A DNA stretch of 64,000 nt, taken from IMG/VR virus record IMGVR_UViG_3300037421_000106. The stretch is one strand, 5' to 3'. The position numbers and the translations under genes were made by a program. Positions 4,964-25,112 of this stretch are shown in pieces (positions within the stretch are counted from its first letter, which is position 1; each line of letters opens with the position of its first letter). Under the pieces are notes generated by a model, which saw only the letters and a program-made list of their open reading frames with translations, made no database searches and was not told the DNA's origin. The DNA is from a virus. Its lineage: Duplodnaviria; Heunggongvirae; Uroviricota; Caudoviricetes.

Positions 4964-4975
4964 GGAGATCTCCGA

Positions 4976-5915: not shown

Positions 5916-6971
5916 TCACGTCACGGTGGCGGTGGCCGCCGCGGTATCGGCACCTTCTAGGATGGCGGCGCTGCCGACGGACGAATCGGTGTCGGTTCCA
6001 TGTACGGTGTCGTGCCGCTCGGTCACAGCTACCGTACCGGAAGAGATCTTCTGCGCACTGGCGGCCGCTATGTCATGCGACTCGTGCGGCGTCCCACTGA
6101 GAGTGGCGTACGTAGACCCAGTCGACGCGGATACGACAGTGTCATGCCCTTCCGTGACGGCGGCGGTCCCGGCGATCGACGTATTAAACGCATGAACCTG
6201 ATCATGAGACTCGAGAATTGCGCCGACGAGAACGCCCGGGGTGAAGCTACCTGCAGCCACTCGGTCGTGACCTTCATGAATCGCACCACTCATGAACACG
6301 GCTGGTGCGATCGTAAAGGCTTCCGACGCCCACGCGCCTTGATCGAAACCCTGAATGATTGCGTCTTCGATATCGAAACCGAACAGCGGTGTGAACGGGA
6401 CACCGCCCGAACCTTGCGCAAAATAATGATTCGTGACACCTACGCCGGCCGCTACCACGTCGAGATAGCCGTTTTTGTAAAGCGACTGCGTGACAGCATT
6501 CGGAACTGGCCCGACCAGCAAAAATGCGATCGTCATGTCTTGGTGATCGATGATGTATTCGCTGTAGCCGAGCGGATTCCAGAATTGATTCAGCACTCGC
6601 TCGCCGCCAGGTACTGTGCCGTCCCAATGGTTGGCGGCCACGGTGGCGTACAGAAGCAAGCGGTATTCGTCATCGGGTAGCGGATAGAGAACCGTATTGC
6701 CGCCGACGATTGGCGCCCACGCGCCCTGATCGAAACCCAGGCCCGCGATGTCGAATGAGAAGAACAATCCCGTGATCGGTACGTTAACAAAGCGCGTCGG
6801 GCCGATCCATTGCCCGGTGGTATCGAGCTGCGACCCAATCGCCGTGTCGAGATCGTACAACGCAGGAATTCCGTTCGTAACATTCTGCTGATCGACGAGC
6901 GGCTGCAGCAACGCCTTCATCACTGCGACGAAGTCGGGCTGACTGAATGGTGCTTGCGGCAACTGGCTCAT
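5916..6971 (-). CDS. Baseplate/fibre-associated protein with C-terminal tandem T-E-[SG]-H-D repeats
   Basis: 351 aa; C-terminal ~120 aa made of ~15-18-aa repeats (ILESHDQVHAF, TEGHDTVVSAS, HESHDIAAASAQ, TERHDTVHGT, ILEGADTAAATATVT). Confidence 0.5.
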   Translation of the reverse strand: MSQLPQAPFSQPDFVAVMKALLQPLVDQQNVTNGIPALYDLDTAIGSQLDTTGQWIGPTRFVNVPITGLFFSFDIAGLGFDQGAWAPIVGGNTVLYPLPDDEYRLLLYATVAANHWDGTVPGGERVLNQFWNPLGYSEYIIDHQDMTIAFLLVGPVPNAVTQSLYKNGYLDVVAAGVGVTNHYFAQGSGGVPFTPLFGFDIEDAIIQGFDQGAWASEAFTIAPAVFMSGAIHEGHDRVAAGSFTPGVLVGAILESHDQVHAFNTSIAGTAAVTEGHDTVVSASTGSTYATLSGTPHESHDIAAASAQKISSGTVAVTERHDTVHGTDTDSSVGSAAILEGADTAAATATVT

Positions 6972-6973
6972 GA

Positions 6974-7825
6974 TCAGAACGCAAACGGATACGCCGGAGG
7001 CGTGAAATTGGACGTGTAACGAGCTACGTTGCTGAATCGAACTTCATCTATATTCCCGTCGAATATTTCTCCGATAGCTGCGATATCTCCGCCTATGGCA
7101 ATTGGGTGTCCATTCGTGGAAATAGTCCCCGTGAGTGTCCCACTGCCGAAAGAAGTGCCTTGAAAGAATGCAATCATTATTCCGGACGAACGAACAAGCG
7201 CACAATGCAACCACTGACCGGTCGGTACCGTAGGGCCAATTGCGGCAAATTGATATGCGCCAACACTGTTGCTTGCATAAAAATGAATGAGATGGTTTAT
7301 ATCGCATTGAAGCAGAAGCCATGACGCCCCACCCACCGTTCCTGTTTGACCTAAGAACGAAGTGTTGATAGCCATAGAAGTTATCGTGTTGAAATACACG
7401 AAACATTCAATCGTGAAATCTCCAACAAAATCCCATTGAGTTGCGTCAGGCGTAGTGATACGTTGATTAGTAGTGCTAAGAAGAGATGCTGTTCCAAATT
7501 TGAAGTTTGTAGTCGATAGTGCCGCACCGTTCACACCAGTCCAAGTGTTTCCATACACGTCCGTGAAAGTGGTTGAACCATTCGTACCATCAAGATGCAA
7601 CAACGCCAATCCGTTCGGCCCGGACTGCAACTGCCCAAATACCGTATCTGGAGATTCTTGTACTGCTACTCTTCCAATCGCATTCAAGAAAGAACGAGCA
7701 CTGACGCGATCATAGCCTTCGACAATCGACGCACGACCAAGTACTGGACCCAACGGTGGCGCCAATAATCCGCTGTTGTGCTCAGGCACAATCAGCTTGA
7801 TGTACTGATCAACCAATATCATCAT
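6974..7825 (-). CDS. Concanavalin-A/LamG-like lectin-domain tail protein
   Basis: LHLDGTNGSTTFTDVYG... FDGNIDEVRFSN matches LamG/laminin-G jelly-roll hallmark (DE.R.xN); paralog of 23988-25112. Confidence 0.5.
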   Translation of the reverse strand: MMILVDQYIKLIVPEHNSGLLAPPLGPVLGRASIVEGYDRVSARSFLNAIGRVAVQESPDTVFGQLQSGPNGLALLHLDGTNGSTTFTDVYGNTWTGVNGAALSTTNFKFGTASLLSTTNQRITTPDATQWDFVGDFTIECFVYFNTITSMAINTSFLGQTGTVGGASWLLLQCDINHLIHFYASNSVGAYQFAAIGPTVPTGQWLHCALVRSSGIMIAFFQGTSFGSGTLTGTISTNGHPIAIGGDIAAIGEIFDGNIDEVRFSNVARYTSNFTPPAYPFAF

Positions 7826-9018
7826 GTCACCGTGACGATAACATTGGCAGGCACACAGAATGCCGCAGCGTTGAATGCGATTGGAATATTCGCGGTACCC
7901 GTCGGACTTGGCGCCAGGCCCACCGTGAGTGCGGTGATGTAATACGTCGCACCCACGCCGATCGAATCAAGCTGCGCGGCAGGATACAGTTGCGAATAGA
8001 ACACCTCACCGCCGATTGGGAGAGACTCGAGAAATGCTGAAACTGCCGCTTGAATCGAACCTACGGTGCTACCCGCAAATCCAGGCAATGCTTTGATCGT
8101 GATGCTCACATAGATCGGAACTTCAGTCAGCACGTCGAAGTGAATCACGATCGGCAATCCTGAACCTTGATCGATAACCGTAAACGTCTCGGCTCCATAC
8201 GTACCTGTACCCTCAGACTTCGTCTTCTGAATCGTGTTGGCGATCGTCTGCAGATCCCCGCCGGCCACGATGACGTCGATCGAGTGACTCGGCACACCGT
8301 TGACATCCGTCGAGCTTGTGTTGTTCTCGTAAACCGTCCACTGCGTTACACCAGGCAGCTGCCCGATTGCCGCAAAGATTGCGGCAAGAGGTGACGTCGC
8401 CGGCAGTGCGACAGATTTGGACTGACGCACGCGAAGAGTCGCGTCAGTTTCAACAGGTGCGCCGGGCACTGCAATATGCACCGGGTTGTTCACTGTCGAC
8501 CATCCGAGTTGCGGATTGAATATGATGTTTACGCTGTTGGTCGTTGCGCTAATGGCTCCGATCTGTTGCGCCGTAGCGGTTTCGTCGATTGCGCCCGCGA
8601 GAGGGATCGTAACGCTCGCGGGCAGATTCCACAGATTTCCATTCGTGTCTTGCACCACACCATTGGTAATGGTGGTTCCAGCGGTACCCGTGATAGTTAC
8701 GACGACGGTGCTGTTCGTGGCCACGTCTCGCGTCAGACCGTTAATCCGAACCAAGCTCGACAGATTGGCCCCTTGAGCAAATGACGGACTGAAAGATTGA
8801 TATGCCGCTACGATGGCGTTGTTTCCGTCACTGATTGCCTTGGCAAATACAGCGAGCATGTTGCCATCCTGGCTGTCCGGAGAGATCACCGCATCGGAGC
8901 CGTAGATACCCTGGAAACTGGCCTGCAGCGACGCATAAACGTCCGCATACGTCGGGATAGTGATACCGGCGCTCGTGATGGTAGGGCCGAGCGTGGCGAG
9001 CGGATAGGGTCCAGCCAT
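7822..9018 (-). CDS. Baseplate J-like protein (Mu gp47 / P2 gpJ family)
   Basis: 398 aa, N-terminal ...TLGPTITSAGITIPTYADVYASLQASFQGIYGSDAVISPDSQDGNML typical of Baseplate_J; position after W-like protein. Confidence 0.6.
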   Translation of the reverse strand: MAGPYPLATLGPTITSAGITIPTYADVYASLQASFQGIYGSDAVISPDSQDGNMLAVFAKAISDGNNAIVAAYQSFSPSFAQGANLSSLVRINGLTRDVATNSTVVVTITGTAGTTITNGVVQDTNGNLWNLPASVTIPLAGAIDETATAQQIGAISATTNSVNIIFNPQLGWSTVNNPVHIAVPGAPVETDATLRVRQSKSVALPATSPLAAIFAAIGQLPGVTQWTVYENNTSSTDVNGVPSHSIDVIVAGGDLQTIANTIQKTKSEGTGTYGAETFTVIDQGSGLPIVIHFDVLTEVPIYVSITIKALPGFAGSTVGSIQAAVSAFLESLPIGGEVFYSQLYPAAQLDSIGVGATYYITALTVGLAPSPTGTANIPIAFNAAAFCVPANVIVTVT

Positions 9019-9028
9019 GGCAGTTTCC

Positions 9029-9376
9029 TCAAAGACTGAGCGTTATCGGCGCGGTGCCGTAAATCGTATCGATGGTTGCAGTGATCGTCAGGGCGCGACC
9101 ATTCAACTGCGACGAATAGTCCAGGATCTGATTCACTCCCGGCGTATTCAGGATCGCGCTTTGAATCGCCCCATCGCGGACGCCTGCAGTGCCGAATCCA
9201 ATCACTTGCTGCAAGTACGGTACTCCGACATTCGTATCGAGGAACCACTGACCTTGCCATAGGCGCAAACGCGTCAGGACCGCCTGAGCGACGCATTGCG
9301 GCGAGTTGACCAGGAACTGCGTGTGCCCGCTGAAGATCGTGCTATCGCCAGTTGGAGTGAGCTCGCGGTATCGCAT
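9029..9376 (-). CDS. Baseplate wedge protein (gpW/gp25-like, Mu gp46 position)
   Basis: 115 aa, size and position between spike (V) and J-like genes. Confidence 0.45.
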   Translation of the reverse strand: MRYRELTPTGDSTIFSGHTQFLVNSPQCVAQAVLTRLRLWQGQWFLDTNVGVPYLQQVIGFGTAGVRDGAIQSAILNTPGVNQILDYSSQLNGRALTITATIDTIYGTAPITLSL

Positions 9377-9384
9377 TTTTGTCT

Positions 9385-10122
9385 CTATGCTACGGGGCCA
9401 CTGTCGTCGCCGCCAGTTTGAACCAAAGTGTGGAGGTGGGTCTCGTCGATGCGATGGCCATTGGCAACCACTTCGCCCGCAAATGTGCTCGTGGCCGCGG
9501 TGATTCCTACAGCTGCAGCATCGATGATCGTGTTTCCTACGGATGCGACATTGACCTGACCCGCAGCATTCAGATTGATGTCGCCGCCCGCATTGATATT
9601 CACGTTGGCAGGCGTGTGAATGTTCACAACGTGGCCGCCGGCAATCTCGATGTACGCCTGGCCATCATCTGAGCGCAATTGTACCGTATTCGTGCTGACG
9701 CTTGGCAGGGCATGCGGAAGACTGGAAACGCCCACGCGGACGAATCCATCGGACAGATCGTGCATCCGAAGATCCCCTTGCTGACTCATTTGGCCAGTCG
9801 ACCACCACCCGTCGATGCAGCGACTGGAAAATGCCACTGTGCATTCATCTCCGGGCTGAATGGGGAATGTCAGGTGATATCCCCCTCCTCCTGGAAACTC
9901 CACGGGGCAATCGGCGATCACTGGCATCTGAATGTGTGCGGGCGAGCCTGTCCGAGGATCATTCCACTGGATGATGATCTGGGGCTGAACCTGACACGTT
10001 TGTTTCACCGCGTCGTAACTGACGATCTTCGCCGGCAGAAGAGTCCATATGTTCGCCTGACGGCCGCGGATCGCCGCAATCACGGCGCTTCGCAAGTCGT
10101 TTACGCGTTCGCGCGGATCCAT
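9385..10122 (-). CDS. Baseplate assembly protein V / central spike (Mu gp45-like)
   Basis: 245 aa; N-terminal OB-like region and C-terminal G/N/V/A-rich beta-helical repeats (VNIHTPANVNINAGGDINLNAAGQVNVASVGN) typical of gpV spikes. Confidence 0.55.
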   Translation of the reverse strand: MDPRERVNDLRSAVIAAIRGRQANIWTLLPAKIVSYDAVKQTCQVQPQIIIQWNDPRTGSPAHIQMPVIADCPVEFPGGGGYHLTFPIQPGDECTVAFSSRCIDGWWSTGQMSQQGDLRMHDLSDGFVRVGVSSLPHALPSVSTNTVQLRSDDGQAYIEIAGGHVVNIHTPANVNINAGGDINLNAAGQVNVASVGNTIIDAAAVGITAATSTFAGEVVANGHRIDETHLHTLVQTGGDDSGPVA

Positions 10123-10123
10123 C

Positions 10124-11137
10124 CTAACCTCCGGTCAATGGGTTCGTTAGAACCGTCGAGGTGGTTTTGTCGGTGGCCAGGCACGTTAAATTGGCGTACC
10201 ACTTCTGACCGCGCGTGTCACCTTCGTACTCGATGACATATATACGGTAAACGCCGTCGAACGTCGTCTTTGCAACGTAATCGATGTCCTTGCCTCGGCT
10301 GCGAAAACTGACACCTGCCGAACCGCCCTGTGCCAGGTTAATCGAACTACCGATGAAGGTGTTGATCAGATCGGCGTTCAGTTGAATCGTGCCGCCAACT
10401 TGTAGCAGCGGGTTAATCAAACACTGAATCTTGAGACCCTCATTTGTCGCTTCCGGAATGCCGACTACGCCTGTCTGTGTCGACATCTGGATCGGAGGCC
10501 CCGGCAGATATCGGTTAACCGGAATCAATTGCAGCACGCCTTGCTGGATTGACCACGAGACATTCAAAGTAGATGCCAGCGTATGGATCGTGTCGCGTGC
10601 CGCTCCGAACAACACTTTCGAACGAGGATTCGCGATACCTGTTTTCAAAGTGTCAAAGTCATCACGAACGACAACGGATGTCTCGCCATTACTCACATTG
10701 CTGATAGCTTTGTTTCCTGCGGCAACTGCAGCCGCTATGACTTGCTGCGGCGTATTGCCTTTCGCCAGAGAAGTGCTCACAAAGCCTTGGTTGTAAAACA
10801 CGTCAGCGTCGGAACATAGCAAATCAAGATACGTGCGCGTGGCAGTCTCTTTGCCTTTTCGAAATTGTTTGATCGAACCTGCAAAGATCGCAGCGAATGG
10901 GCCATTCTGATAGCCGGCCTGCAGAGTCACCGTTGTGAATTCGAGCAGGATTTTATTCATCGTTTCGGGTTTCAAGTTGTATACCCGAATGACGGCCGTG
11001 TTGGGGTGATCAATGTCCGCAGCCTCAATGCTGAACACGATGCGGAATTCTGACAAATCAAGTGTTTCACCTGCTGCACTGGTTATTTGCAGCACGCATT
11101 TTCTATTGAACAAACCTATCTGATCGGTAGTCATCAC
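10124..11137 (-). CDS. Baseplate hub protein (Mu gp44 / P2 gpD-like)
   Basis: 337 aa, position between tape-measure-proximal genes and spike in Mu-like order. Confidence 0.4.
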   Translation of the reverse strand: MMTTDQIGLFNRKCVLQITSAAGETLDLSEFRIVFSIEAADIDHPNTAVIRVYNLKPETMNKILLEFTTVTLQAGYQNGPFAAIFAGSIKQFRKGKETATRTYLDLLCSDADVFYNQGFVSTSLAKGNTPQQVIAAAVAAGNKAISNVSNGETSVVVRDDFDTLKTGIANPRSKVLFGAARDTIHTLASTLNVSWSIQQGVLQLIPVNRYLPGPPIQMSTQTGVVGIPEATNEGLKIQCLINPLLQVGGTIQLNADLINTFIGSSINLAQGGSAGVSFRSRGKDIDYVAKTTFDGVYRIYVIEYEGDTRGQKWYANLTCLATDKTTSTVLTNPLTGG

Positions 11138-11463
11138 GGCACCGTGATGAAGTAAAGATTTCCGTTGTCGCCCAGATTGCTATATGTCGGCACCGCGTCG
11201 GTGTCGTAGTCAGTCATGGCTACGAGCGACCCTCCGAAATTCAAGTAACCGTACTGTCCGAGGAGATCACAACCTGTGACCAGCGCGATTCCTGTAACGA
11301 TGTTATTTCCCGACTGATCGGCAATATCGAGTGTCCAGCTGTTCGCATTGGAATTGAAATTGAGCGTCAGCGTGTATACCGTGCCGCCCAATGAGATACC
11401 CAACTGCTGCTGAGAGCTGGTCAAAGGAATACGATAGGGGGTCATGGCGCCACTCCTATCCAC
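11134..11463 (-). CDS. Hypothetical tail protein
   Basis: 109-aa ORF, translationally coupled in tail module. Confidence 0.35.
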   Translation of the reverse strand: MDRSGAMTPYRIPLTSSQQQLGISLGGTVYTLTLNFNSNANSWTLDIADQSGNNIVTGIALVTGCDLLGQYGYLNFGGSLVAMTDYDTDAVPTYSNLGDNGNLYFITVP

Positions 11464-12116
11464 ACGCCTGCGGCGGTCGCATTGAAGTTGGGTGCGGCCG
11501 CAACCGACAAACGACCCGTTAACTGCACCGGATTCGTATCCTGAGGAGATTGTTGAGCGGACTGAGGCGCAGCCACCGTGACAATTTGCGTTAGCGCAAT
11601 CAGCACTTGACGCATGTGCAACGTCACTCCGAGCATGTTGACTTTCTCTTTATCCGATTCGGTAGAGATCCCTTGGATCATCATTTGCGGATACTGGCGC
11701 TTGCTAGTGACAACCGTATAAAGCACGCGTGCTGTCTGACCTTGAATCAGCTGCGTGTAAATAGCAGCCAATTGTGCAATGTATTCCGCACCGGGAGTGC
11801 TGTTTCCAATTCGACCGAGATCGAACAGCTGTTGCCCTGACCATCCAATATGTAGAGTGAGCTCGGCCGGCTTCTTGAATGAATGATCGGTGATGGGCGC
11901 ACCCTGTTCGATCGGGTGAGCCTCGATCTCCATCTCGTCGTGATGAATTTCTTCGAGCGTGACTTGGCCGATGAACTGAGGGTTGTTTGCTTGTGAGGCC
12001 GGCAGCCCATTCTGCAGGATGTTGTCCTGACCCACGAGCGCGCCCGTCGTACCGACCTCGGGGTAGAGGCCGCGAACGAGTTGCAGACCGGGCACTGGCG
12101 CGTTTGTGAGAGGCAT
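11442..12116 (-). CDS. Tail protein (Mu gp43 position, function unresolved)
   Basis: 224-aa ORF directly downstream of tape measure gene. Confidence 0.35.
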   Translation of the reverse strand: MPLTNAPVPGLQLVRGLYPEVGTTGALVGQDNILQNGLPASQANNPQFIGQVTLEEIHHDEMEIEAHPIEQGAPITDHSFKKPAELTLHIGWSGQQLFDLGRIGNSTPGAEYIAQLAAIYTQLIQGQTARVLYTVVTSKRQYPQMMIQGISTESDKEKVNMLGVTLHMRQVLIALTQIVTVAAPQSAQQSPQDTNPVQLTGRLSVAAAPNFNATAAGVWIGVAP

Positions 12117-12118
12117 GA

Positions 12119-14158: not shown

Positions 14159-14160
14159 GA

Positions 14161-14610: not shown

Positions 14611-14622
14611 GAACGTTCCTTG

Positions 14623-16122: not shown

Positions 16123-16135
16123 GCTGGACTCCCAA

Positions 16136-16792
16136 TCAAGTGACCGTCGCCATGGCGGACACGGTATCGAAACCTTCACCTATCGACGCGTCCCCATCAG
16201 GCCGAGCCAGCAGGATGGTGGTCGTGTACGACTCGTTATTTACGGTCACATTGATGGCGACAAGGTCCTGAATCGCATACCAACGGACAATCTGACGACG
16301 TATTCTAACAGGCAAATCCACGCGATAGAGCCAGCGCTCCTTCACAAGGGAGGGTACTGTACGAAGTTCCCCGGTGTCGACCAGGCTCGCATTTTGGGTA
16401 TTCAAGATGGCTAGATTTTGCGGGATGTACAGCCCATCGCGCAATAGCGCCGCATAGTAATCGGCGGTACCGTCAGGGCTGTAGAACGACACCAGAATCT
16501 CAAGCGTCTCGTGTGTCTGGAACTCGTCATGCTCGGGCATGTTGCCCGACTGCGGCACGTGTCGTTGATAGGAGAACTTCGGATTCGAACGCTTTACAAC
16601 ACCAAACGCCGCCCATGGACCTGTTGGCAGATTCGCGACATCCGGGAATTGCCACCGCGGGAAAAACGATGTGCCAGGCAGACCAGTGATACCGACGAAG
16701 ATGGGCTGAAGGAAGCGGAATAGATCCTGACCTTCGAGAGGTGCGGGCGCATTGTACGGCAGCAGGTAACCGCTGGTTGCCGAGGTGTTCAT
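16136..16792 (-). CDS. Hypothetical virion protein (neck/tail completion region)
   Basis: 218 aa; C-terminus IGEGFDTVSAMATVT resembles one copy of the E-x-H-D repeat of 5916-6971. Confidence 0.4.
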   Translation of the reverse strand: MNTSATSGYLLPYNAPAPLEGQDLFRFLQPIFVGITGLPGTSFFPRWQFPDVANLPTGPWAAFGVVKRSNPKFSYQRHVPQSGNMPEHDEFQTHETLEILVSFYSPDGTADYYAALLRDGLYIPQNLAILNTQNASLVDTGELRTVPSLVKERWLYRVDLPVRIRRQIVRWYAIQDLVAINVTVNNESYTTTILLARPDGDASIGEGFDTVSAMATVT

Positions 16793-17205
16793 CGCGTCAC
16801 CGTTGCATCAATACGATCCACACTCGTGGCCACGACGCGCACCCATCCTGGGCCAAAATGGTTCCACGGCAGCACTTGCACGAGCATGAATGTGTCACCG
16901 CTCCAAAGTAGCAAATCAGGTTGCCGCTGCGTGGGCGGAATCGTATTCAGCTGTACCGCAGCAGTGTTCAGCAACGCCCTCGTGAAAATCACTATGTTGC
17001 GTTGCCCGTACTGTATGTCGTCGCGTCGCTTCAGATCCGCCGGCTTGGCTGGCGTTACCACACCGAGTATGTTGCGCGTGATTGTGTCGTTGGTACTGAC
17101 CTCTCCGAGATTGCTGACGCTCTGCACGCGCTGGACGACATCGAACCGATCCGTAAACTGCGGATCCAGAAGCATGATGCTCGGATCGAGGAACGGCCCG
17201 GCCAT
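16789..17205 (-). CDS. Hypothetical virion protein
   Basis: About 138 aa from MAGPFLD; stop overlaps next start (ATGA); C-terminus ...VDRIDATVTR. Confidence 0.4.
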   Translation of the reverse strand: MAGPFLDPSIMLLDPQFTDRFDVVQRVQSVSNLGEVSTNDTITRNILGVVTPAKPADLKRRDDIQYGQRNIVIFTRALLNTAAVQLNTIPPTQRQPDLLLWSGDTFMLVQVLPWNHFGPGWVRVVATSVDRIDATVTR

Positions 17206-17209
17206 GGCT

Positions 17210-17755
17210 TTACCTGCTGCGTCGAGCGTACAGAATCCCAAGCGCAGTCAGGTCGGTACCGCTGTTTACAGTAACGTTCAGCACAAGATAGACGGTGGTT
17301 GGAGTCGACACATTGAACGGTTGCGGTGCAGGTACATCCGACACAGGTGTCGCCAACGCGATGCCGTAGACGTCCGACGCACAGAGATACGCTGCCGGCA
17401 ATACCCCCGTCGTGGTGCTGATGCCGACAGTCGCTTGCGCAGGCACCGCAGAACCGCCCGTACTGGTCAGAACCATCGAGCCCCACACATCCCAATCACC
17501 CGCCGGTAGTGTCAACGAAATCAGGTTGTGAGTGCCAGTGGCAGCGAATGCCACGGGGCTCGCAGTTACGGCCTGAAGCAACTGCCCCACGGTTCCTGCC
17601 GCAGCAGCGCTGCCGTCGGTGATTCCGGGAATTTGCCCGATCGGCGAAAACACGGACAATCCTTGTGCGGTTTGAATCCCCGACGGAATGCCGTTGGTCA
17701 GCTGTAGCAGGCAAATTTCGCCGGCAATTCCAAGATCGATGTATGCAACGGCCAT
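17210..17755 (-). CDS. Hypothetical virion protein
   Basis: 181-aa ORF in head-tail joining region. Confidence 0.4.
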   Translation of the reverse strand: MAVAYIDLGIAGEICLLQLTNGIPSGIQTAQGLSVFSPIGQIPGITDGSAAAAGTVGQLLQAVTASPVAFAATGTHNLISLTLPAGDWDVWGSMVLTSTGGSAVPAQATVGISTTTGVLPAAYLCASDVYGIALATPVSDVPAPQPFNVSTPTTVYLVLNVTVNSGTDLTALGILYARRSR

Positions 17756-17764
17756 GTCGTTCTC

Positions 17765-17992: not shown

Positions 17993-18029
17993 TCGTTATT
18001 CCCGAATCGCGAATACTTCCGTTCGGAGT

Positions 18030-18284: not shown

Positions 18285-18286
18285 GA

Positions 18287-18856: not shown

Positions 18857-18859
18857 GGA

Positions 18860-19342
18860 TCACTCCGAGAAGTCTTCAAACCGAGGACCCGACCAGGCAG
18901 GCCCCATCGGGAAGAAGACTCCGCCGAATTGCCCGGCCGGCGCAAATCCCGGACGTGTTTGGATCGGCCCGGATCCAAATTGACGTGCCAGCTTAACGAA
19001 CATCGTGCCATAGCGCGTATTCGACCACGGGCCATCTTCCGCGTTCGTTCCGAGAGCCGTGTCGTAGGCGATCGTGAGTTCGCCGACCGTCTTGCTGGAG
19101 ATTGGGCCGACCGTCATCCCCGGGGGCGCACCATTGCCGCCCTCGGCCGTAGAGAGCCCTTGCATCGAGATCTGATGCGCCGTATACAGCTGAGCACCCA
19201 AATCGATCGCCGTCTTCCAACGCCTGGTCGACAGGAACGTGTAGGCCCATTGCAGCCACATGTTCACCATCGAGTCAGGATAGACCGTGGCTGCCGTGAA
19301 CTCCGGAAAGTTGGCGCGAAATTGCGCTACGCTGATTGCCAC
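18860..19342 (-). CDS. Head-tail connector-like protein (DUF4054-like N-terminus)
   Basis: GTG start (19342) right after upstream stop; begins (M)AISVAQFRANFPEFTAATVYPD, the characteristic DUF4054 N-terminus. Confidence 0.4.
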   Translation of the reverse strand: MAISVAQFRANFPEFTAATVYPDSMVNMWLQWAYTFLSTRRWKTAIDLGAQLYTAHQISMQGLSTAEGGNGAPPGMTVGPISSKTVGELTIAYDTALGTNAEDGPWSNTRYGTMFVKLARQFGSGPIQTRPGFAPAGQFGGVFFPMGPAWSGPRFEDFSE

Positions 19343-19350
19343 GATACACC

Positions 19351-19701
19351 CTATTGCGGCGTGACGATGCCGTTGGAGTTCTCCGGATCGTGCTCGTTGG
19401 CACCCCACATCTGGTGCACGCGATTCGCATATTCCAGCGTGTCGCATTTAACCGGCATGTGGCTGCCGTCGTGACCCATACTTGAGCCTTCGCCGTAGCC
19501 GAAGTCCATCACCCGCGCGGCCGGGCTGGCGGCACCTGGCGCCTTTGCTTCGAACGGGCACTCGTGATCCTTGTTCGCTTCGCGCTTCGTGTTTTCCGCG
19601 ATGGCGATGGCTTGTTTCATCGGCATGTCGGGATGCGCATGCTTCTCGATGCTGATGTTTTCGCCGACCGATTTCTCGGTTCCTGTTTTGACCAGAGGCA
19701 T
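19351..19701 (-). CDS. Hypothetical protein
   Basis: 116-aa ORF downstream of capsid gene. Confidence 0.35.
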   Translation of the reverse strand: MPLVKTGTEKSVGENISIEKHAHPDMPMKQAIAIAENTKREANKDHECPFEAKAPGAASPAARVMDFGYGEGSSMGHDGSHMPVKCDTLEYANRVHQMWGANEHDPENSNGIVTPQ

Positions 19702-19711
19702 GATGCTCTCC

Positions 19712-19897
19712 TTACCTGATGAAACCTGCAGCGCGGAGTTCTACTTCAGTCCAACCCGCGGCCAAGAAATCCTTGATTGATATCCCTTGGGCCTTACTCG
19801 TCATGCGGATATCCTGGAATTGACTATGCGGTACGGTGCCACCGGCAGGCCGATTTGGATCGACACTAGGGGCCTTATGGGTAGCGGGTAACAGCAT
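19712..19897 (-). CDS. Small hypothetical protein
   Basis: 61 aa with strong SD (CAGGAGAATGAAATG) just after capsid-gene hairpin. Confidence 0.35.
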   Translation of the reverse strand: MLLPATHKAPSVDPNRPAGGTVPHSQFQDIRMTSKAQGISIKDFLAAGWTEVELRAAGFIR

Positions 19898-19906
19898 TTC
19901 ATTCTC

Positions 19907-19933
19907 CTGAAAGTGAAACGGCCTGGGGGTCGC
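19907..19933 (-). terminator. Hairpin (11-bp stem) downstream of major capsid gene, possible attenuating terminator
   Basis: AACGGCCTGGG-GGTCG-CCCAGGCCGTT perfect inverted repeat followed on minus strand by TTTCACTTTC. Confidence 0.35.
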
Positions 19934-19996
19934 CCAGGCCGTTCCGTTTGCGACCGCGGTGAGGACGGCCGAGTTCGGCTCGCGGAAAGGACTCTC

Positions 19997-21085
19997 TTAC
20001 ACGCCGTAGCGCGAACCCGCAGTCTCGGGGTACACGACTTCTACGACGCCGAGCCGGCAGAAGTAGGTCGTCATGTGCCAGATACCGCTGTACTGGATCG
20101 GCGTACGCTGAAGCGTGGTCATCGGGAAACGAACCCGGTTGTACTGCTTCGTGTAGCAGAACATCACGTCGTTCGAGCTCGTCTTCGTACCCGGGACACC
20201 GAAGTTCGGGCTCGGCAGACCGGCGTTCAGACCGACCAGCCACTTGCACGGGAAGATCTGCAAACCACCGCCCTTTTGCGCGCGCACGGTGATGTTGTTC
20301 TCTTCCAGGTAGCGCAGGATCGACACGTTGCCGGCATTCGATACCTTCTGCGTGCTGATGTAGCCGAAAACGATCGGCGGAAGCAGCAGACGGTTCGGCA
20401 TCACTGCCCACGCCGAGGCGGTCCAAACGCTGGTGATGAGCTCGTTCACGTCGGCCAGGATTTCATCCGGCTGCTTGCTCACCCACGGGGTTGAACCCGA
20501 GGCGCCCGTCGCCACGATCTTGGTGTTCGTAATCAGCGAGGAGTTCAGCAGGCCGGTATCGCCCGTGCCCAAGTCACCGACGTACACTTGCTCGTCGATG
20601 TCCATCTGGTGCTTCAGCTGCAGGAATTCGAATTTCTGCTGGTCGACAGGACGGCCCGTCTTCGCAGCGCTTTCGAGTTCCAGGATCGTGAACTTGACTT
20701 CCTGTTCCCAGATCCGCAGCGGGTTGGTGATCTTCGCGATGTCCAGCGACTGCGCACCGACCTGATTGGTCTGCTTGCCAGCCCACGACTTGCCACGGCC
20801 GACGGTGTTGCCGGTGCCGAGGCCGCCCGGCGAGCCGCCGGTCGACAGCGTGAACGAGGAGAGCTCGTCGGCGATCGTCACGTCGGAGCGCAGATCGATG
20901 TCACGGTGCCAGGTGACCGAAGCCAGCGGCATGTGCAGCGTCTGATCCAGACGTTCGAGCTCGCCCACCATGAACGCGCCGGTCGAGTCGACCGTGCGAA
21001 TCACTTGCCCCTTGGAGTCACGCACCTTACCGGGTTGCGACAGGGGATACCCATTGGGGCCCAGTTGAAGATTCGTCATGTCCAT
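19997..21085 (-). CDS. Major capsid protein (DUF2184-type)
   Basis: 362 aa, downstream of scaffold/protease and decoration-like gene, followed by hairpin; sequence character consistent with DUF2184 capsid family as recalled. Confidence 0.55.
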   Translation of the reverse strand: MDMTNLQLGPNGYPLSQPGKVRDSKGQVIRTVDSTGAFMVGELERLDQTLHMPLASVTWHRDIDLRSDVTIADELSSFTLSTGGSPGGLGTGNTVGRGKSWAGKQTNQVGAQSLDIAKITNPLRIWEQEVKFTILELESAAKTGRPVDQQKFEFLQLKHQMDIDEQVYVGDLGTGDTGLLNSSLITNTKIVATGASGSTPWVSKQPDEILADVNELITSVWTASAWAVMPNRLLLPPIVFGYISTQKVSNAGNVSILRYLEENNITVRAQKGGGLQIFPCKWLVGLNAGLPSPNFGVPGTKTSSNDVMFCYTKQYNRVRFPMTTLQRTPIQYSGIWHMTTYFCRLGVVEVVYPETAGSRYGV

Positions 21086-21125
21086 TGCAGTTTCCTTGGT
21101 TGTGCGCTGTCAGGCGTCAGATGGA

Positions 21126-21701
21126 TTAGCCGCCCAGAACAACTTCGGCCACGCCGAATTGGTCCGCCGGTCCGTTGTAGTACGCGTCGTCGACGATCAG
21201 CTGTGAGGTGGCTTGGGGATCGACCACCGATTCGAAGCCGCCAACCGGCAGAGTCGTAAAGCCGGTGCTGGCCGAAGTGGCTACACGGACGTACACGGGG
21301 GCGCCCAGTTGAACCGCAGCTGCGTAGGTGCCAGTCGGTTCGTTGACCGTAACCAGAACCCCGCCCGAAAGCGACAGCACATCAACCACTTGACCGGCGG
21401 TCGGGCCGCCCGCGTTGAACGCAGTGGCGCCAAACGTCTCGCCCGAACCGTTGTCTTGGGTCGGATACGGACGCGTGGTGATGCCGGCGATGCGGACCTT
21501 CGTGTTGCCTTTGGCGGTGTCGTCGGTGGTGTCGACGGCACGGACCGTGTTGGTCGCGCCATGGAACAGCACAGCCTGTCCGAAATACGTGGCCGGATTC
21601 GAGCCCGACGCGTCATTCATGAACGCACGGACCGAGCCGGGATGGATACGGGTGATTTCACCGGGACTGCCGGCGCCCATGCGATACGGAAAAGCGGCCA
21701 T
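21126..21701 (-). CDS. Putative head decoration/structural protein
   Basis: 191-aa G/T/A-rich protein between scaffold and capsid genes. Confidence 0.35.
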   Translation of the reverse strand: MAAFPYRMGAGSPGEITRIHPGSVRAFMNDASGSNPATYFGQAVLFHGATNTVRAVDTTDDTAKGNTKVRIAGITTRPYPTQDNGSGETFGATAFNAGGPTAGQVVDVLSLSGGVLVTVNEPTGTYAAAVQLGAPVYVRVATSASTGFTTLPVGGFESVVDPQATSQLIVDDAYYNGPADQFGVAEVVLGG

Positions 21702-21732
21702 GTTGATTCCTTGTCGTGGTCAAAAGTGGTTG

Positions 21733-23343
21733 TTACTCGGCAGTTTGTTGAGCCCAATGCTCTTCGTTCATCCGCTGCACGTCGGCGATCGAGAGAGGTC
21801 CGGTGCGACCCGCGCCAGCGCCCGTCTTTTCGGAGTCCGAGAAGCTGCGCATATCGGCGTGGCTCGTTTGAGCCTTGTGAATCGCGACGGCCGCCCGGAA
21901 AGTGCTGGTCACTTCACGGCAGCTACAGCCGGCGAAATCGAGATTCCGCGTGACTTGCGACAGGACTTTCTTGCCGTCTTCGCTCGCCGAGAACAGAATC
22001 AGGGCGTTCTTGCGCAGATTGCAGAGAGTGTCATACCCTTGGGCTGTCGGCAGCTTCGAGTCGAATGTCGGGATGCTGATGGTCGGGGCCAGGATCGCCG
22101 CGTCGCGCACCGTGTCAGCGAAAGATTCGACCAGCATTTCGGAGTCCCGCGCCTTGATCGCATCGCCCGTGTACTGGGGCGCTTCTTCTTTCAACTCGCC
22201 TTCAATCTTGCGATTGGCCTTCTCGTGCGCCGGCTCTTCGCCTTCGACTGAATCGACATGCTTGCCAGCCGCCTTGGCCATCTCTGCCATGTTGTCAGCC
22301 ATCTTCTTCATTTCGGCAAACCCGTCTTCGCACGTCTTCTTGATGTGCTCGATCGCGTCATCCTGGGCCTTCATCTTCTCGTGAAAAGCCGCGTTGGTCT
22401 CGGCATCCGCGAAAAACACTTTGCCACCGAAGGTCGCTGCATGTTCGCCGCCGACCGTGCCGGCGTTGTCTTTGGCTGAGCTCACGCGTTCTTCTCCTGT
22501 TTCGGGCAGCCCACCTTCGGGCTTGGTCGTTTCTGGCGCACCCAGATGGACGTGGATGTGCGTCGTCGATTCGTTGTGCTCGGGGTCACCGGTGAGTTTC
22601 ATGATGCCGTCGCTGTCTTCCATGGCCGCCTTCAGGGCAACCTTGTCGTCGCGCAACACGGCATCTTTGACTCGCTTCATCCAATCGGCAACCACTCGCA
22701 TAGCACTGTCCTCAATTCGGTGGGTTGTTTCTGCACCACAGGAACAGAGTATATCGGAACAATTCGCGTGCGTGCGCTGGCCCCACAAGTCGGGTCCTTC
22801 CGGCTGCATGGCGGAATCTCGCACGGCGCATCGAGTGCCGCATCGACCGGGAATATTGCGCAAGAACGCAACATGATTGATTCGGATCTGTCGTTGTGCA
22901 GCGTGACCCGGCCCGTAAATCTCATAGCGCGATTCGTAGCCACAGGAGAGTTCCTGTGTCGGATCCGCTTCTACTGCTGCGATCGCATCGGGGTGTTTGA
23001 AGATCAAATCCGCGAGCAGCAGATCATCCTCGATACCAGTGCCGCGCCGGATGTTCTGCATGTGACCACGCGACAGCATTGACCAATTGTCAGGAACAAC
23101 ATCGACGCCCGGATGATTGTCGACAATGTCTTTCCCTTCGGCACTAGCCATAGCCTCGGGCGCGAACACCTCTTCGGGATCGCGCTCGATCTTTATGATG
23201 CCGTCGGGGCCAGGCTCCAGTCCAACCTCATTGACGCTGTACAGCTGAAATCCGGTGCGCGCGATGGCGCACCCGGAGATCACGAGGAATCCCTCGGGCG
23301 TCTTTGAGCGATGCTCGGTGAGTTTGACTGGCGTATAAAACAT
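21733..23343 (-). CDS. Prohead protease/scaffold-like protein (DUF2213-like)
   Basis: 536 aa; globular N-terminus then long charged alpha-helical/coiled-coil C-terminal half (E/K/A-rich) as in scaffolds; upstream of capsid. Confidence 0.45.
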   Translation of the reverse strand: MFYTPVKLTEHRSKTPEGFLVISGCAIARTGFQLYSVNEVGLEPGPDGIIKIERDPEEVFAPEAMASAEGKDIVDNHPGVDVVPDNWSMLSRGHMQNIRRGTGIEDDLLLADLIFKHPDAIAAVEADPTQELSCGYESRYEIYGPGHAAQRQIRINHVAFLRNIPGRCGTRCAVRDSAMQPEGPDLWGQRTHANCSDILCSCGAETTHRIEDSAMRVVADWMKRVKDAVLRDDKVALKAAMEDSDGIMKLTGDPEHNESTTHIHVHLGAPETTKPEGGLPETGEERVSSAKDNAGTVGGEHAATFGGKVFFADAETNAAFHEKMKAQDDAIEHIKKTCEDGFAEMKKMADNMAEMAKAAGKHVDSVEGEEPAHEKANRKIEGELKEEAPQYTGDAIKARDSEMLVESFADTVRDAAILAPTISIPTFDSKLPTAQGYDTLCNLRKNALILFSASEDGKKVLSQVTRNLDFAGCSCREVTSTFRAAVAIHKAQTSHADMRSFSDSEKTGAGAGRTGPLSIADVQRMNEEHWAQQTAE

Positions 23344-23349
23344 GACGTG

Positions 23350-23619
23350 TTACTCGATGTCGTACGTGTCGCCCGATGCGCCGGCAAACAGAACCTGACC
23401 AATAGGTCCGTTGTAATTCAACAGGATCGCGCCGGCAACAGTGGCAGTCGGCGTCATCGTAACGAAATGCGCGCCACCATCCATACTCAAACTGATCGCA
23501 CGACTGGCGTTCGTCGAGTTCAGCTGGATGCTAAACGGAGGCGAGCCTGCGCCCACACCGGTCGCGACCGTGCCGCCAGCGGGGATAGTTCCGGATGAAA
23601 ACAGAGCGGGAGTGTCCAT
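23350..23619 (-). CDS. Hypothetical protein
   Basis: 89-aa ORF. Confidence 0.3.
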   Translation of the reverse strand: MDTPALFSSGTIPAGGTVATGVGAGSPPFSIQLNSTNASRAISLSMDGGAHFVTMTPTATVAGAILLNYNGPIGQVLFAGASGDTYDIE

Positions 23620-23649
23620 GATTGTGATCCTTTCAGGTGGAATTGTATC

Positions 23650-23979
23650 TCAAATATTTTCAGTGACGATGAGGCGAAACCCTCGGGGCTCGATACGACC
23701 ACCGACGGTGTAGATCGTGTTTAGGATGAAATAAGTGCCAATCGTGGGTGACGAGATCCACGTCGTGGTCACATTGGTTGGGATGTTTGTCGCGGGCGAG
23801 CTCGCGACATTCGGTGCTGGAACAGACCACGTGGAGCGTGCGATCTGATCGAGCGGGGACATGCCGGGCACCGCCGGCAAACCTGCAAGAAAATCGGTCC
23901 AATCAAGGCTGTAATCGCGAAACTCGCCTGGCGCCACGACGATGTACCAACCTTGTGCATCTTGAATGAAATCGCCCAT
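23650..23979 (-). CDS. Hypothetical protein
   Basis: 109-aa ORF. Confidence 0.35.
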   Translation of the reverse strand: MGDFIQDAQGWYIVVAPGEFRDYSLDWTDFLAGLPAVPGMSPLDQIARSTWSVPAPNVASSPATNIPTNVTTTWISSPTIGTYFILNTIYTVGGRIEPRGFRLIVTENI

Positions 23980-23987
23980 GACGGTCC

Positions 23988-25112
23988 TCAGAAGGGTAGC
24001 GACACTATACCGGTATCGCGATACTGCGCCGACACGCGAAGGACACCAGATGCCGCGGGAAGTCGAAGTGCGGGCCTTGCGATGTACGCCATACCGATTG
24101 CACGCACGATGTCATTTGTTTCTTGAATGATCGCAGTGGTCACCGGAAGCTTTGCTTTGGCGATGACCGCGTCTACAAGTTCGCGGATCGCTGCAGTGCC
24201 TGATGAAATGACTGTACCGCCCGAATGCGCAATGTCATTATGTTCTTTGATCAGGGCCTGGCCAATCGACGCAACTGTCGCGTGCGACAGCACCGAGTCG
24301 ATACGTTCGCGAATCGCTGCAGTACCTGTTGCTATAGGTGAGGCTAACGCGCGAAAAATATCATGAGACTCGAGAATTGCGGCAGTTCCTTGATTGGCAA
24401 TGGAAGTGGCCGAGCCTTGCGCGCGGTCCTGCTGTTCGAGCATGCTCTGCACTGAAAATGGTGCAGATGGCGGAGTGAAGTTCGCGGTGTAAACCGCTTT
24501 CCCCATCGTAATACGGGCTTCATCGATGAAACCATTCCAGGTACTGCTGGGAGAACCGTTAGCGGACCCGATCGCTTGACCGGTCATGCCTTTGATGATC
24601 GACCCACTGTATGAACCGGTTGGCGTTTGCGCGACACCGTCAAGGTACATGGTAAAAGTCGGACCGTATCGCACCCACGCGCCATGGTGCCATGATCCTG
24701 TGGATAGAACCGCACTCGGTGTACTTATCGCAACGCTCCAATTGGTAGAGCCGTCAGCGCTACCGCAGAGCATGAACATGTCGCCGTTATTGAAAAAGCA
24801 GAGACATCCCGAGAAGCCGGAGCCCTGAGATCCAAATACAACGGTTGATCCGCTAAGGCTGTTCGCGTATACCCAGGCCTCGAATGTCCAATCCTGAGTC
24901 AGCGGGGCGAAGATGTCATTGCTCGTGCTGATTAGCACACCACCACCGAGGCCTAGCGATGACGGGCCAAATTTTTGCTGAGTGGTGGAAAGTGCGGCAC
25001 CGCCAACAGCCGACCACGAGCTACCGAAGACATCGGTGAATGTGGTCGAGCCGTTGGTTCCGTCGAAGTGCAGTAGCGCTGTCGACGGGTCGGTGTAGAG
25101 GGTAGCGGCCAT
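23988..25112 (-). CDS. LamG/ConA-like lectin-domain protein with internal I-x-E-x-[HN]-D repeats, located in head module
   Basis: LHFDGTNGSTTFTDVFG...NGFIDEARITMGKAVY (LamG hallmark) plus repeats ILESHDIFRAL / IRERIDSVL / IKEHNDIAH / IRELVDAVI / IQETNDIVRAIG; paralog of 6974-7825 with repeat type of 5916-6971. Confidence 0.5.
   Translation of the reverse strand: MAATLYTDPSTALLHFDGTNGSTTFTDVFGSSWSAVGGAALSTTQQKFGPSSLGLGGGVLISTSNDIFAPLTQDWTFEAWVYANSLSGSTVVFGSQGSGFSGCLCFFNNGDMFMLCGSADGSTNWSVAISTPSAVLSTGSWHHGAWVRYGPTFTMYLDGVAQTPTGSYSGSIIKGMTGQAIGSANGSPSSTWNGFIDEARITMGKAVYTANFTPPSAPFSVQSMLEQQDRAQGSATSIANQGTAAILESHDIFRALASPIATGTAAIRERIDSVLSHATVASIGQALIKEHNDIAHSGGTVISSGTAAIRELVDAVIAKAKLPVTTAIIQETNDIVRAIGMAYIARPALRLPAASGVLRVSAQYRDTGIVSLPF

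Follow-up and report, generated by a model that had tools for sequence, protein, structure and literature searches.

A 21-residue repeat shared by wedge, terminator and LamG proteins of a soil phage, and its possible role in accessory fibres

Do head-side and tail-side proteins of one phage share the same short repeat and, if so, what might it do there? We addressed this question in a 64,000-nucleotide stretch of DNA from a soil phage (the window). A preliminary description had proposed that repeats of about 15 residues are shared by a tail protein, a LamG protein of the head module and the C-termini of two other virion proteins, as an oligomerisation or attachment tag or a receptor-binding element exchanged by recombination. 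The sharing is genuine and goes beyond chance, yet the period is 21 residues rather than 15. The unit reads G-[TS]-A-A-I-T-E-x-x-D-T-V-[AS]-A-[TS]-G-x-[VL]-x-[VI]-x, and its carriers in the window are four: B (5916-6971, six units), H (23988-25112, five), T (6974-7825, two) and N (16136-16792, one). Their features, together with those of the genes flanking H, are collected in Table 1.

To compare the carriers, HMMs made from the units of one protein were run against the six-frame translation of the whole window. Units of B found those of H (E 5e-8) and vice versa (1e-5), those of T found B (5e-9) and N (0.013), and that of N found T (0.003), while nothing beyond the unit carriers scored in the six frames. 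In the family profile Glu7 and Asp10 are 99% invariant across 1,109 units, the glycines at positions 1 and 16 are about 80% conserved and position 8 is Gly in 34%; in the window, Glu7 and Asp10 are present in all 14 units and the two main glycines are less regular. One could suspect a resemblance by chance, or Ala/Thr/Ser-rich low-complexity stretches of separate origin, given that A, T, S and G abound in the unit regions and that a dozen other proteins of the window contain lone [ILVTH]-x-E-x-x-D matches. This is refuted by the strength of the cross-protein matches in an otherwise silent window, by the strict period and the two near-invariant positions, and by the 56 clusters that the units retrieve at E<=1e-10 from a library of 1.84 billion proteins.

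Table 1. Repeat units and associated features in the window.
Feature	Position	Strand	Evidence
Six tandem 21-aa units, C-terminus of B (aa 227-351)	5919..6293	-	unit HMM, 20-26 bits each
DUF2612/Phage_Wedge1 core of B	6294..6971	-	Pfam PF11041, E 1.3e-38, profile positions 12-180 only
LamG (Laminin_G_3) domain of T	6977..7612	-	Pfam E 2.5e-18
Two 21-aa units of T (aa 30-71), between wedge peptide and LamG	7613..7738	-	20.8 and 20.5 bits
N-terminal peptide of T (MMILVDQYIKLIVPEHNSGLLAPPLGPVL)	7739..7825	-	residues 6-17 match the N-terminal segment of intact DUF2612 wedge proteins
Single unit, extreme C-terminus of N (aa 200-218; GDASIGEGFDTVSAMATVT, then stop)	16139..16195	-	unit HMM, 22.4 bits
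Gp77-family Ig-like 'fiber-tail adaptor'/collar protein, immediately downstream of H	23650..23979	-	Pfam PF23148, E 1.5e-9, 38.7 bits (cut-off 27)
28-aa C-terminal tail of H, after the units; candidate virion-proximal anchor	23991..24074	-	translation
Five 21-aa units of H (aa 242-346)	24075..24389	-	unit HMM and cross-protein HMMs
N-terminal LamG part of H (aa 1-241)	24390..25112	-	Pfam E 4.1e-16
p200, PHROG-3758 small virion structural protein, immediately upstream of H	25125..25727	-	PHROG 3758, E 6e-17

Most of the carriers proposed beforehand hold. B does end in six tandem units (starting at residues 227, 248, 268, 292, 312 and 333, with the protein terminating in AAATATVT), and the label of tail protein is correct as to side; more exactly, B is a DUF2612/Phage_Wedge1 baseplate wedge subunit (133 bits against a cut-off of 23.5). 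H has the five units that were described (starts at 242, 263, 284, 305 and 325) behind a Laminin_G_3 domain (PF13385, 59.9 bits; cut-off 27.6), and N ends in one, placed outside its Phage_tail_terminator_9 domain (PF23961, 81.3 bits against 27, aa 22-185). The two N-terminal units of T, whose LamG domain scores 67.1 bits with the same Pfam model, were absent from the earlier list. The C-terminus of 16789-17205 (VDRIDATVTR), which was on it, has to be removed: it scores only 3.0 bits (E 13), forms the end of a conserved domain, and the tail differs in a 73%-identical homologue. The LamG domains of T and H are 36.6% identical and both begin with the block LLH[LF]DGTNGSTTFTDV[YF]G, as noted before, but this block is the conserved start of the whole LamG subfamily and not peculiar to the pair.

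We sought to clarify whether the units are a mobile element. The nearest homologues of each host protein have no units (51-69% identity for LamG, 61-65% for DUF2612, 34-40% for the terminators; the closest homologues of H are 223-226 residues long), suggesting that units were grafted as modules onto unrelated head- and tail-side proteins. This part of the original proposal stands. Recent exchange of the units does not, because they are diverged at the DNA level: identity between units is at most 71%, and the sole identical tract is 22 nt long, between B unit 2 and H unit 1. Cassette-type rearrangement is real, with a 98%-identical relative bearing an extra LamG cassette flanked by a 62-nt repeat. 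Copy number varies among close relatives too: an 87%-identical homologue of N (in L023) has two units at the same place instead of one, and B of a 73%-identical relative (L010) has 6-7 while keeping the ATATVT end. Distant terminators have none.

Beyond the window, an exhaustive HMMER search with a profile made solely from the window units matched 170 protein clusters at E<=1e-3 in the library of 1.84 billion proteins. The 150 best representatives of these clusters contain 1,281 units, of which 832 successive spacings are exactly 21 residues, in arrays of 1 to 25; the resulting family HMM finds the units of B, T and N again in relatives. Metagenomic phages carry the family in abundance, and among cultured phages it occurs in at least one, a Vibrio myophage whose baseplate module includes a protein with about 15 units. 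The 21-residue unit is described in none of Pfam, NCBIfam, the PDB and the literature searched, and is thus a previously undescribed repeat, widespread in metagenomic phage fibre-like proteins. The sole catalogued family covering it is PHROG 38872, whose profile positions from about 204 to 351 match database arrays and a protein of Vibrio phage 367.14; its entry holds neither function nor structure nor a description of the repeat. The window proteins do not match this PHROG at E<=0.001 because their units are divergent.

Many members consist of a short N-terminal peptide, the units and a C-terminal domain, and most members of the family have separate distal domains, among them LamG, PKD, Ig, SGNH esterase and PASTA. 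LamG and units occur together in 9 of 114 clusters. The order can be reversed, as in P0272, where a distal domain is followed by 17 units and a terminator domain, in a gene just before the sheath gene; P0183 repeats the arrangement of B, with DUF2612 followed by six units. Because the typical architecture runs from anchor through units to distal domain, the units are most likely the stalk of an accessory fibre. Stalk repeats of fibres govern the reach and mounting of receptor-binding domains. In our full proposal, to which we give about even credence, tailed phages would share an accessory-fibre system that is widespread and mobile; the unit would be its stalk module, assembled with the help of a PHROG-3758 protein or by it. 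Each unit would be a short beta-forming segment in which the invariant Glu7 and Asp10 flank a turn, and 1 to 25 of them would connect a virion-embedded anchor to a distal domain, copy number setting the reach.

Would such units fold alone? Two AlphaFold2 runs on units alone gave two strands per unit, both at low confidence (pLDDT 42 and 48), and the one with eight units and an in-register 30-row alignment gave no solenoid. Foldseek returned nothing significant (best E 0.035; TM-scores mostly at or below 0.3), the weak matches being beta-rolls and beta-solenoids, and the units match the Pfam family LbR_Ice_bind weakly (E 0.0016). The units may have a beta fold, and the low-confidence models fit one that depends on a partner or on oligomerisation. 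Like the triple beta-spiral of adenovirus and reovirus, the triple beta-helix of T4 gp5 and the HxH needle of T4 gp37, the unit is a short, fixed-period, probably beta-forming repeat, and it shares with classical fibrous phage repeats the conserved Gly turns, the stalk position between anchor and distal binding domain and the variable copy number. It departs from them in period (21 against 8 to about 15-16 residues), in consensus and in its invariant acidic pair, and also in occurring singly and on proteins for which a monomeric state in the virion is expected; its trimeric folding is putative.

The units might nonetheless be a self-sufficient fibrous fold, homo-oligomeric or monomeric (for instance a triple beta-helix in which each face takes 7 residues, or a beta-solenoid with three sides), next to which PHROG-3758 would be a chaperone or an unrelated neighbour. 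Glycines at positions 1, 8 and 16, and an alternation of small with hydrophobic residues, suit three short strands per 21 residues, beta-rolls and beta-solenoids are the only weak matches, and phage fibre chaperones are commonly encoded beside fibre genes. Still, we regard this as rather unlikely: no solenoid appears even with the eight-unit alignment, the single unit of N or the double one of T cannot form a stable solenoid alone, and six terminator subunits would hardly trimerise through a 19-residue tail. Each wedge is moreover expected to contain a single B, judging from Pa193 gp46 and E217 gp45 (PMC11456595, PMC10329688), and the annotation of the PHROG-3758 protein of phage KPP25 is that of a virion component rather than of a chaperone.

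In the stalk proposal the units would probably not fold alone, and would most likely be assembled with, or by, the neighbouring PHROG-3758 protein. A PHROG-3758 homologue lies 0-2 genes upstream of a unit-bearing fibre-type protein in all seven contexts with enough flank, spanning myophage and siphophage modules. In the window this neighbour is p200, which may touch the units physically and, like H and T, is a predicted virion protein; its solved homologue is the KPP25 protein mentioned above (PDB 44nx_B). KPP25 and cyanophages have PHROG-3758 proteins and no units, so the pairing is not obligatory in that direction. On the other side of H, the Gp77-type collar gene is found directly downstream of a unit protein twice (H and P0144), and P0147 has a weak Gp77-like domain fused to units. 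We place H, tentatively, at the neck: p200, H (LamG, five units and the 28-residue tail, a conceivable anchor) and the Gp77-type Ig collar protein would be one module making LamG-tipped neck or collar fibres. If the PHROG-3758 neighbour is indeed a physical partner, this would be a compact modular system for mounting lectin-type domains at the neck, the baseplate and other sites, useful for annotating many 'hypothetical' phage structural genes and for host-range engineering.

The same synteny keeps alive the earlier idea of an attachment tag, with a partner other than the one then imagined. A precedent for the stalk proposal is offered by the collar-rope-whisker assemblies of GP4 and Bas63, whose bead subunits have incomplete beta-sandwiches that are completed by an extended 'rope' peptide; the podophage GP4 combines the fiber-tail adaptor gp77, the rope and Fiber-1, and the myophages Bas63 and Sf14 likewise have collar, rope and whisker (PMC12609058). 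The window has in common with GP4 and Bas63 a Gp77-family Ig collar gene, here directly after H (as after P0144), and where they thread a periodic rope through small beta-sandwich beads it encodes an extended periodic repeat, always accompanied by a small virion protein; the three adjacent genes p200, H and collar would fill the three GP4/Bas63 roles. By this analogy, which draws on collar homology and synteny only, the unit could be a portable donor-strand 'rope' tag and PHROG-3758 its cognate bead, so that any unit-bearing protein (here the wedge, the terminator, the LamG cassettes and the collar fibre) would be decorated with beads. Fibres would thus be built and relocated by a general tag-and-binder system, spread over unrelated myophages and siphophages. 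Within this lineage, the wedge protein would also have donated its N-terminal anchor peptide to exchangeable receptor-binding cassettes. We consider this extended version unlikely. A further point, which counts against the stalk proposal as well, is that at the sequence level the PHROG-3758 profile matches only KPP25 44nx and, weakly, SlpX among all PDB sequences, and neither GP4 Fiber-1 nor the Bas63 whisker; the unit profile finds no sequence match in the GP4 and Bas63 ropes or in any solved chain. H has a LamG head, which is not reported for either rope, and, unlike in GP4 and Bas63, units here also sit on baseplate and terminator proteins.

B (six units) and N (one unit) would be, in the stalk proposal, headless stalk stubs of the same module. 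Headless stalks are odd for a pure spacer, and this counts against the proposal. Another reading, to which the lack of a distal domain on these core proteins lends support, is that the units are a zipper, close to what the preliminary description had in mind: the C-terminal units of B and N would pair with those of T (or its extra copy T2) and H, for example by sheet extension or coil stacking, mounting the LamG proteins on baseplate and neck. Relatives with a unit-free wedge protein lack T as well, a relative with a unit-free head-module LamG protein has a terminator of 181 residues with no room for a unit, and B and N share the terminal motif [ST]A[TM]AT[VH]T-COOH, kept in a diverged relative. 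These co-occurrences are confined to one clade, however, so that common descent would account for them just as well. In the wedge peptide T has a plausible anchor of its own, and H has a C-terminal tail and a collar gene next to it; the family consists mostly of single fibre-like proteins, in whose flanks, as far as examined, no core protein bears a unit; and P0183 is a unit-bearing wedge with an intact N-peptide and no downstream fibre gene on its 5.7-kb contig, where the upstream gene is cut. Pairing of this kind is thus doubtful in our opinion.

The exposed ends of baseplate and neck proteins, where the units sit, would also suit an adhesin. The invariant Glu and Asp, joined in this clade by the His at position 9, would then hold cations or surface polysaccharide in a reversible first contact with the host. 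Each unit has two invariant acidic residues with no conserved basic partner inside it, and the clade-specific E-x-H-D motif is found in five of the six units of B. But there is no likeness to known cation-binding repeats in Pfam: the RTX calcium beta-roll nonapeptide (GGxGxDxUx) differs in period and consensus, and no HemolysinCabind-type family is among the matches. The separate distal domains of most members are better suited to binding, and PHROG-3758 synteny is left unexplained. An adhesive function is very improbable.

The canonical DUF2612 N-terminal segment, Y-x-x-L-I-x-x-E-H-N before QxPxF, is missing from B, in which homology resumes at SQPDF; relatives without T have an intact, unit-free DUF2612 directly after Baseplate_J. 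With a profile of canonical DUF2612 N-termini, the peptide of T is the top six-frame match in the window, at an E-value (0.33) that for so short a segment leaves its weight dependent on position. Judged by sequence, the segment missing from B stands at the start of the adjacent T. T would thereby be anchored in the baseplate wedge, as a LamG side-fibre with a two-unit stalk, held by the peptide that B lost to it.

This locus can be compared with the baseplate triplex of Pbunavirus, where the wedge protein (E217 gp45, Pa193 gp46) stands with two Baseplate_J conformers (PMC10329688, PMC11456595). The order Baseplate_J, wedge protein (DUF2612 in the window) and tail fibre is common to both, and neighbouring genes in the 99%-identical relative L005 have precomputed matches to Pfam families that bear the names of E217 and Pa193. 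B itself has no similarity detectable by phmmer to the solved E217 and Pa193 chains, its only match being 9zd7 gp89 (E 1.7e-5). Relative to the triplex, the wedge gene of the window is split: its N-peptide heads a separate protein (peptide, two units and LamG), and six units take the place of the wedge C-terminal domain. The split gene may be a concrete case of a core baseplate protein handing its anchor peptide to swappable receptor-binding cassettes. In L028 the extra cassette T2 is headed by the same peptide as T, and this peptide recurs inside a 722-aa ORF of L010.

A scan of all genes in the window for the motif [ILVTH]-x-E-x-x-D returned clusters only in the DUF2612 baseplate wedge protein (B; five matches plus one HESHD unit), the head-module LamG protein (H; five), the tail LamG protein (T; two, N-terminal), the tail terminator (N; one), and an unrelated gene of hexapeptide repeats. 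When the six-frame translation was searched with an HMM of the unit, 14 units scored 20-26 bits each, the best other score being 7.4 bits. To avoid circularity, HMMs built from the units of a single protein were then searched against the window: B units recovered H (E = 5e-8) and H units recovered B (1e-5), while T units recovered B (5e-9) and N (0.013), and N units recovered T (0.003). The arrays in B and H and the single unit in N had been placed largely correctly in the preliminary description, which did not list T as a carrier. What stands of that description is a real and modular repeat; its period of ~15 residues is replaced by one of 21, with Glu at position 7 (E7) and Asp at position 10 (D10), and one proposed carrier is lost. 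The C-terminus of the 16789-17205 product scores 3 bits only and is not a unit; it is part of a conserved domain, and a homologue at 73% identity ends in different residues. The block LLH[LF]DGTNGSTTFTDV is common to T and H, as had been proposed, and represents the conserved beginning of their LamG subfamily; the LamG parts of the two proteins are 36.6% identical.

Coordinates of the features of the window discussed in the text
Feature	Position	Strand	Characteristics
Structural module of a myophage	4976-29196	-	
B, wedge protein	5916-6971	-	DUF2612
B terminal peptide	5919-5942		AAATATVT, then stop
36-nt pair, B unit 2 and H unit 1	6187-6222 / 24346-24381		contains the 22-nt tract
22-nt exact tract	6201-6222 / 24360-24381	+	ATCATGAGACTCGAGAATTGCG; encodes AILESHD
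Equivalent of 62-nt repeat of L028	6965-7027		
T, tail LamG protein	6974-7825	-	
N, tail terminator	16136-16792	-	
N terminal peptide	16139-16162		SAMATVT, then stop
181-aa protein	17210-17755	-	similar to C-terminal part of PHROG 11393, annotated 'tail fiber protein', E 1.6e-23
Gp77-family gene	23650-23979	-	38.7 bits
H, head-module LamG protein	23988-25112	-	
p200, small virion protein	25125-25727	-	PHROG 3758
71-aa ORF	25731-25946	-	NUMOD3 DNA-binding motif, E 4e-4, just over Pfam cut-off
Portal protein (Phage_portal_3)	27037-29196	-	C-terminal inorganic pyrophosphatase-like (InPase) domain, E 1.7e-28
334-aa hexapeptide-repeat ORF	43700-44704	+	non-structural region
18-nt tandem repeat	43823-44479		36.5 copies, consensus GGCAATGCCCGCGTGTTC
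23-nt tandem repeat	49592-49652		perfect, 2.7 copies, CCATCCATCCACCGGTATGTAAG

A HMMER profile built from six double units of the window was run against 1.84 billion representative proteins and found 170 clusters at E<=1e-3, 56 of them at E<=1e-10. The best 150 of the 170 representatives hold 1,281 units, up to 25 per protein, with 832 successive spacings of exactly 21. The consensus of 1,109 units, with percent conservation, is G81 [TS] A A I66 T64 E99 x x D99 T60 V50 [AS] [AG] [TS] G78 x [VL] x [VI] x. Scanning unit-rich proteins with Pfam, PHROGs and NCBIfam gave no described family apart from PHROG 38872, which covers the unit and whose function is not known; unit profiles gave spurious matches only among PDB sequences, a full-text literature search for unit peptides such as AITEGAD found no papers, and the names of the clusters of ten family members were uninformative. 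Protein homologue searches with a 64-row unit alignment and with the first 75 aa of T came back empty, the word index being seemingly unsuited to such queries. Among 50,697 sequenced phages, the only tblastn match was a 542-aa protein with ~15 units in the baseplate module of Vibrio phage 367.14, in a search where the low-complexity filter may have masked much of the query. A candidate unit in Burkholderia phage Magia was discarded: the tblastn extension of the B match beyond residue 228 crosses a stop codon. The repeat family is real, widespread and undescribed, and we count it as a kind of phage fibre repeat.

A typical member consists of a short N-terminal peptide or domain, the array, and a C-terminal domain. 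The domains attached to units include LamG (9 of 114 clusters), DUF2612 (2), PASTA, PKD, fn3 and SGNH esterase. For instance, one database protein (P0272) runs from a distal domain through 17 units to a terminator domain; its gene immediately precedes the sheath gene in another phage, one in which adjacent genes match Pfam families named after E217. A second protein (P0129), with 15 units, belongs to the head module of another phage, close to a homologue of the small virion protein p200. From these architectures it follows that units serve as a link between anchor and distal part, whichever way round, as a stalk does. The best-supported reading is therefore that the unit is the stalk module of a mobile accessory-fibre system; a main rival takes it for an adhesin acting directly.

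Another main rival sees in the unit a self-sufficient oligomeric beta fibre. AlphaFold2 models of a whole 570-aa family member and of an in-register 8-unit segment (30 rows) had low confidence (pLDDT 42 and 48); they place two beta strands in each unit, with turns at E7-x-x and positions 17-19. A Foldseek search of the PDB with the 8-unit model gave no significant match. We read these models as suggesting that the fold of the unit would depend on partners or oligomerisation. The T4 gp21 rule made the I-x-E core a candidate for cleavage by the prohead protease. In myophage assembly, tail parts such as baseplate and terminator proteins are not expected inside the prohead, and because the unit is carried by such proteins this candidate was rejected. 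A comparison of the C-terminal tail of H with canonical terminator C-termini found no relation.

The idea that the repeat is modular proved largely right, since units are lineage-specific additions to B, H and N whose nearest homologues are free of them. The closest homologues of H (51-69% identity) have 223-226 aa and end directly after the LamG domain, DUF2612 homologues at 61-65% identity carry no units, and terminators with 34-40% identity stop at around residue 190. Within the clade, units are retained despite divergence and vary in copy number: the 73%-identical homologue of B shares its ATATVT end and carries 6-7 units, and the terminator of the same relative (87% identical) has two units and ends in ATATHT. 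This type of end, near-identical in B and N, is kept in the diverged relative (followed by a stop in both proteins) and absent from all other proteins of the window. A further main rival makes the unit a zipper between core and accessory proteins, as units on B co-occur with T and units on N with H, yet both co-occurrences come from one clade only.

At the DNA level the units of the window are old, with at most 71% identity for any pair, which gives no support to a recent exchange of modules by recombination. B unit 2 and H unit 1 are the sole pair sharing an exact tract of 22 nt; codons are identical for all eight amino acids that the two have in the same place, the background being 36%. This speaks modestly for a single short conversion event, which is possible.

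The wedge gene itself appears to be split. Intact DUF2612 proteins of relatives and of phage Magia start with ...(I/L)T(P/E)Y(T/L)(S/A)L(I/V)xxEHNQxPxF(M/I)AV..., whereas B starts with MSQLPQAPF-SQPDFVAVM and lacks the first part of this segment, consistent with a Pfam match beginning at profile position 12. The gene of T, directly upstream of B, abuts the stop codon of Baseplate_J in exactly the way that the intact DUF2612 genes of relatives do, and T starts with MMILVDQYIKLIVPEHN, followed by a Pro-rich linker, the two units and the LamG domain. In relatives that lack T, an intact, unit-free DUF2612 gene comes directly after Baseplate_J. A profile of the canonical N-terminus, run against the six-frame translation of the whole window, had its best, weak match at the T N-terminus (E = 0.33). 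As a putative wedge N-peptide, this segment of T is weak by sequence alone and compelling by position. A 98%-identical relative (L028, IMGVR_UViG_3300037852_000220) has an extra cassette, T2, at 4855-5718 between T and B, in which a T-type wedge N-peptide precedes two units and a LamG domain sharing 42% identity with that of T; the indel is flanked by a 62-nt repeat made of conserved gene ends. In the 73%-identical relative L010 (IMGVR_UViG_3300050821_002102), a 722-aa ORF at 7831-9996 has a LamG-PKD part, then the wedge N-peptide with units, and finally an unrelated C-terminal domain of about 300 aa, an arrangement resembled by the PKD, peptide and units of database protein P0212. We infer that the wedge N-peptide anchors exchangeable LamG cassettes in the wedge. 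By analogy with Pa193 gp46 and E217 gp45 (PMC11456595, PMC10329688), B would be expected at one copy per wedge. A DUF2612 homologue without units (L011, 8454-10049) is extended differently at its C-terminus, by about 300 aa in which a ...YTYSG... motif recurs, making the wedge C-terminus a general site for appended repeat domains.

From the portal on, the head-side genes of the structural module encode the portal with its InPase domain, a Mu-F-like protein, p200, H, a Gp77-like protein, a DUF2213 scaffold-like protein and the major capsid protein; connectors, N, sheath, tube, baseplate genes, Baseplate_J, T, B and the tail fibre follow. Megablast of the 21-kb structural region against the 50,697 phage genomes gave zero matches, so there is no close sequenced phage at the DNA level. 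Contigs near-identical to the window come from soil metagenomes, and their precomputed Pfam matches are to families named after Pbunavirus phages E217 and Pa193. The soil metagenomes in which this phage clade occurs are JGI 3300021479, 3300037852 and 3300050821. Relatives have other fusions to portal or scaffold in place of InPase, namely ddrB-ParB on the portal and NUDIX on a Pa193_gp24-like protein. The 181-aa protein, whose gene lies with those of the connectors and a little upstream of that for the terminator, could be a further neck appendage.

The gene directly after H belongs to the Gp77 family of Ig-like fibre-tail adaptor or collar proteins (PF23148). A Gp77-family gene is likewise next downstream of the unit protein P0144, and in P0147 the domain C-terminal to the units is weakly Gp77-like (23.7 bits, under the cut-off); small genes downstream of other unit proteins had no Gp77 match in Pfam, except in L042. 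In podophage GP4 and myophages Bas63/Sf14, an Ig-like Gp77-type protein forms the collar, and collar fibres hang on an extended 'rope' that threads bead-like whisker dimers and completes their incomplete sandwiches (PMC12609058). By analogy, p200 could be the bead, H the rope with its head, and the Gp77-like protein the collar. The collar alone is homologous at the sequence level, unlike the window's candidates for bead and rope, and the likeness is therefore one of mechanism, not membership.

Immediately upstream of H lies p200. Seven contexts reach far enough upstream to be informative (the window, L035, L015, the Vibrio phage L037, L036, L041 and L042), and in every one of them a p200-like profile placed a member 0-2 genes upstream of a unit-bearing protein of fibre type. 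These contexts take in head, neck and baseplate modules of myophages as well as siphophage modules. Such p200-like genes are few in sequenced phages: tblastn matched 3 records when queried with p200, and 9 when queried with the KPP25 protein. The latter, ORF006 of Pseudomonas podophage KPP25, is a PHROG-3758 member that bears the annotation of virion structural protein; its structure has been solved (PDB 44nx), and a full-text search for that code found no papers. Unit-free PHROG-3758 genes exist in KPP25 and in cyanophages, where they adjoin other fibre-like genes. The stalk module probably works with the PHROG-3758 protein. Between the Mu-F-like gene and p200, the 71-aa ORF may be a homing-endonuclease remnant bordering the p200-H-Gp77 cassette.

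Two other repeats were seen in the window. The 334-aa ORF encodes hexapeptide-type repeats such as RVLGTVEVFDSARVFG, and its product looks like a left-handed beta-helix or bactofilin-like protein. The 23-nt tandem repeat looks iteron- or operator-like.
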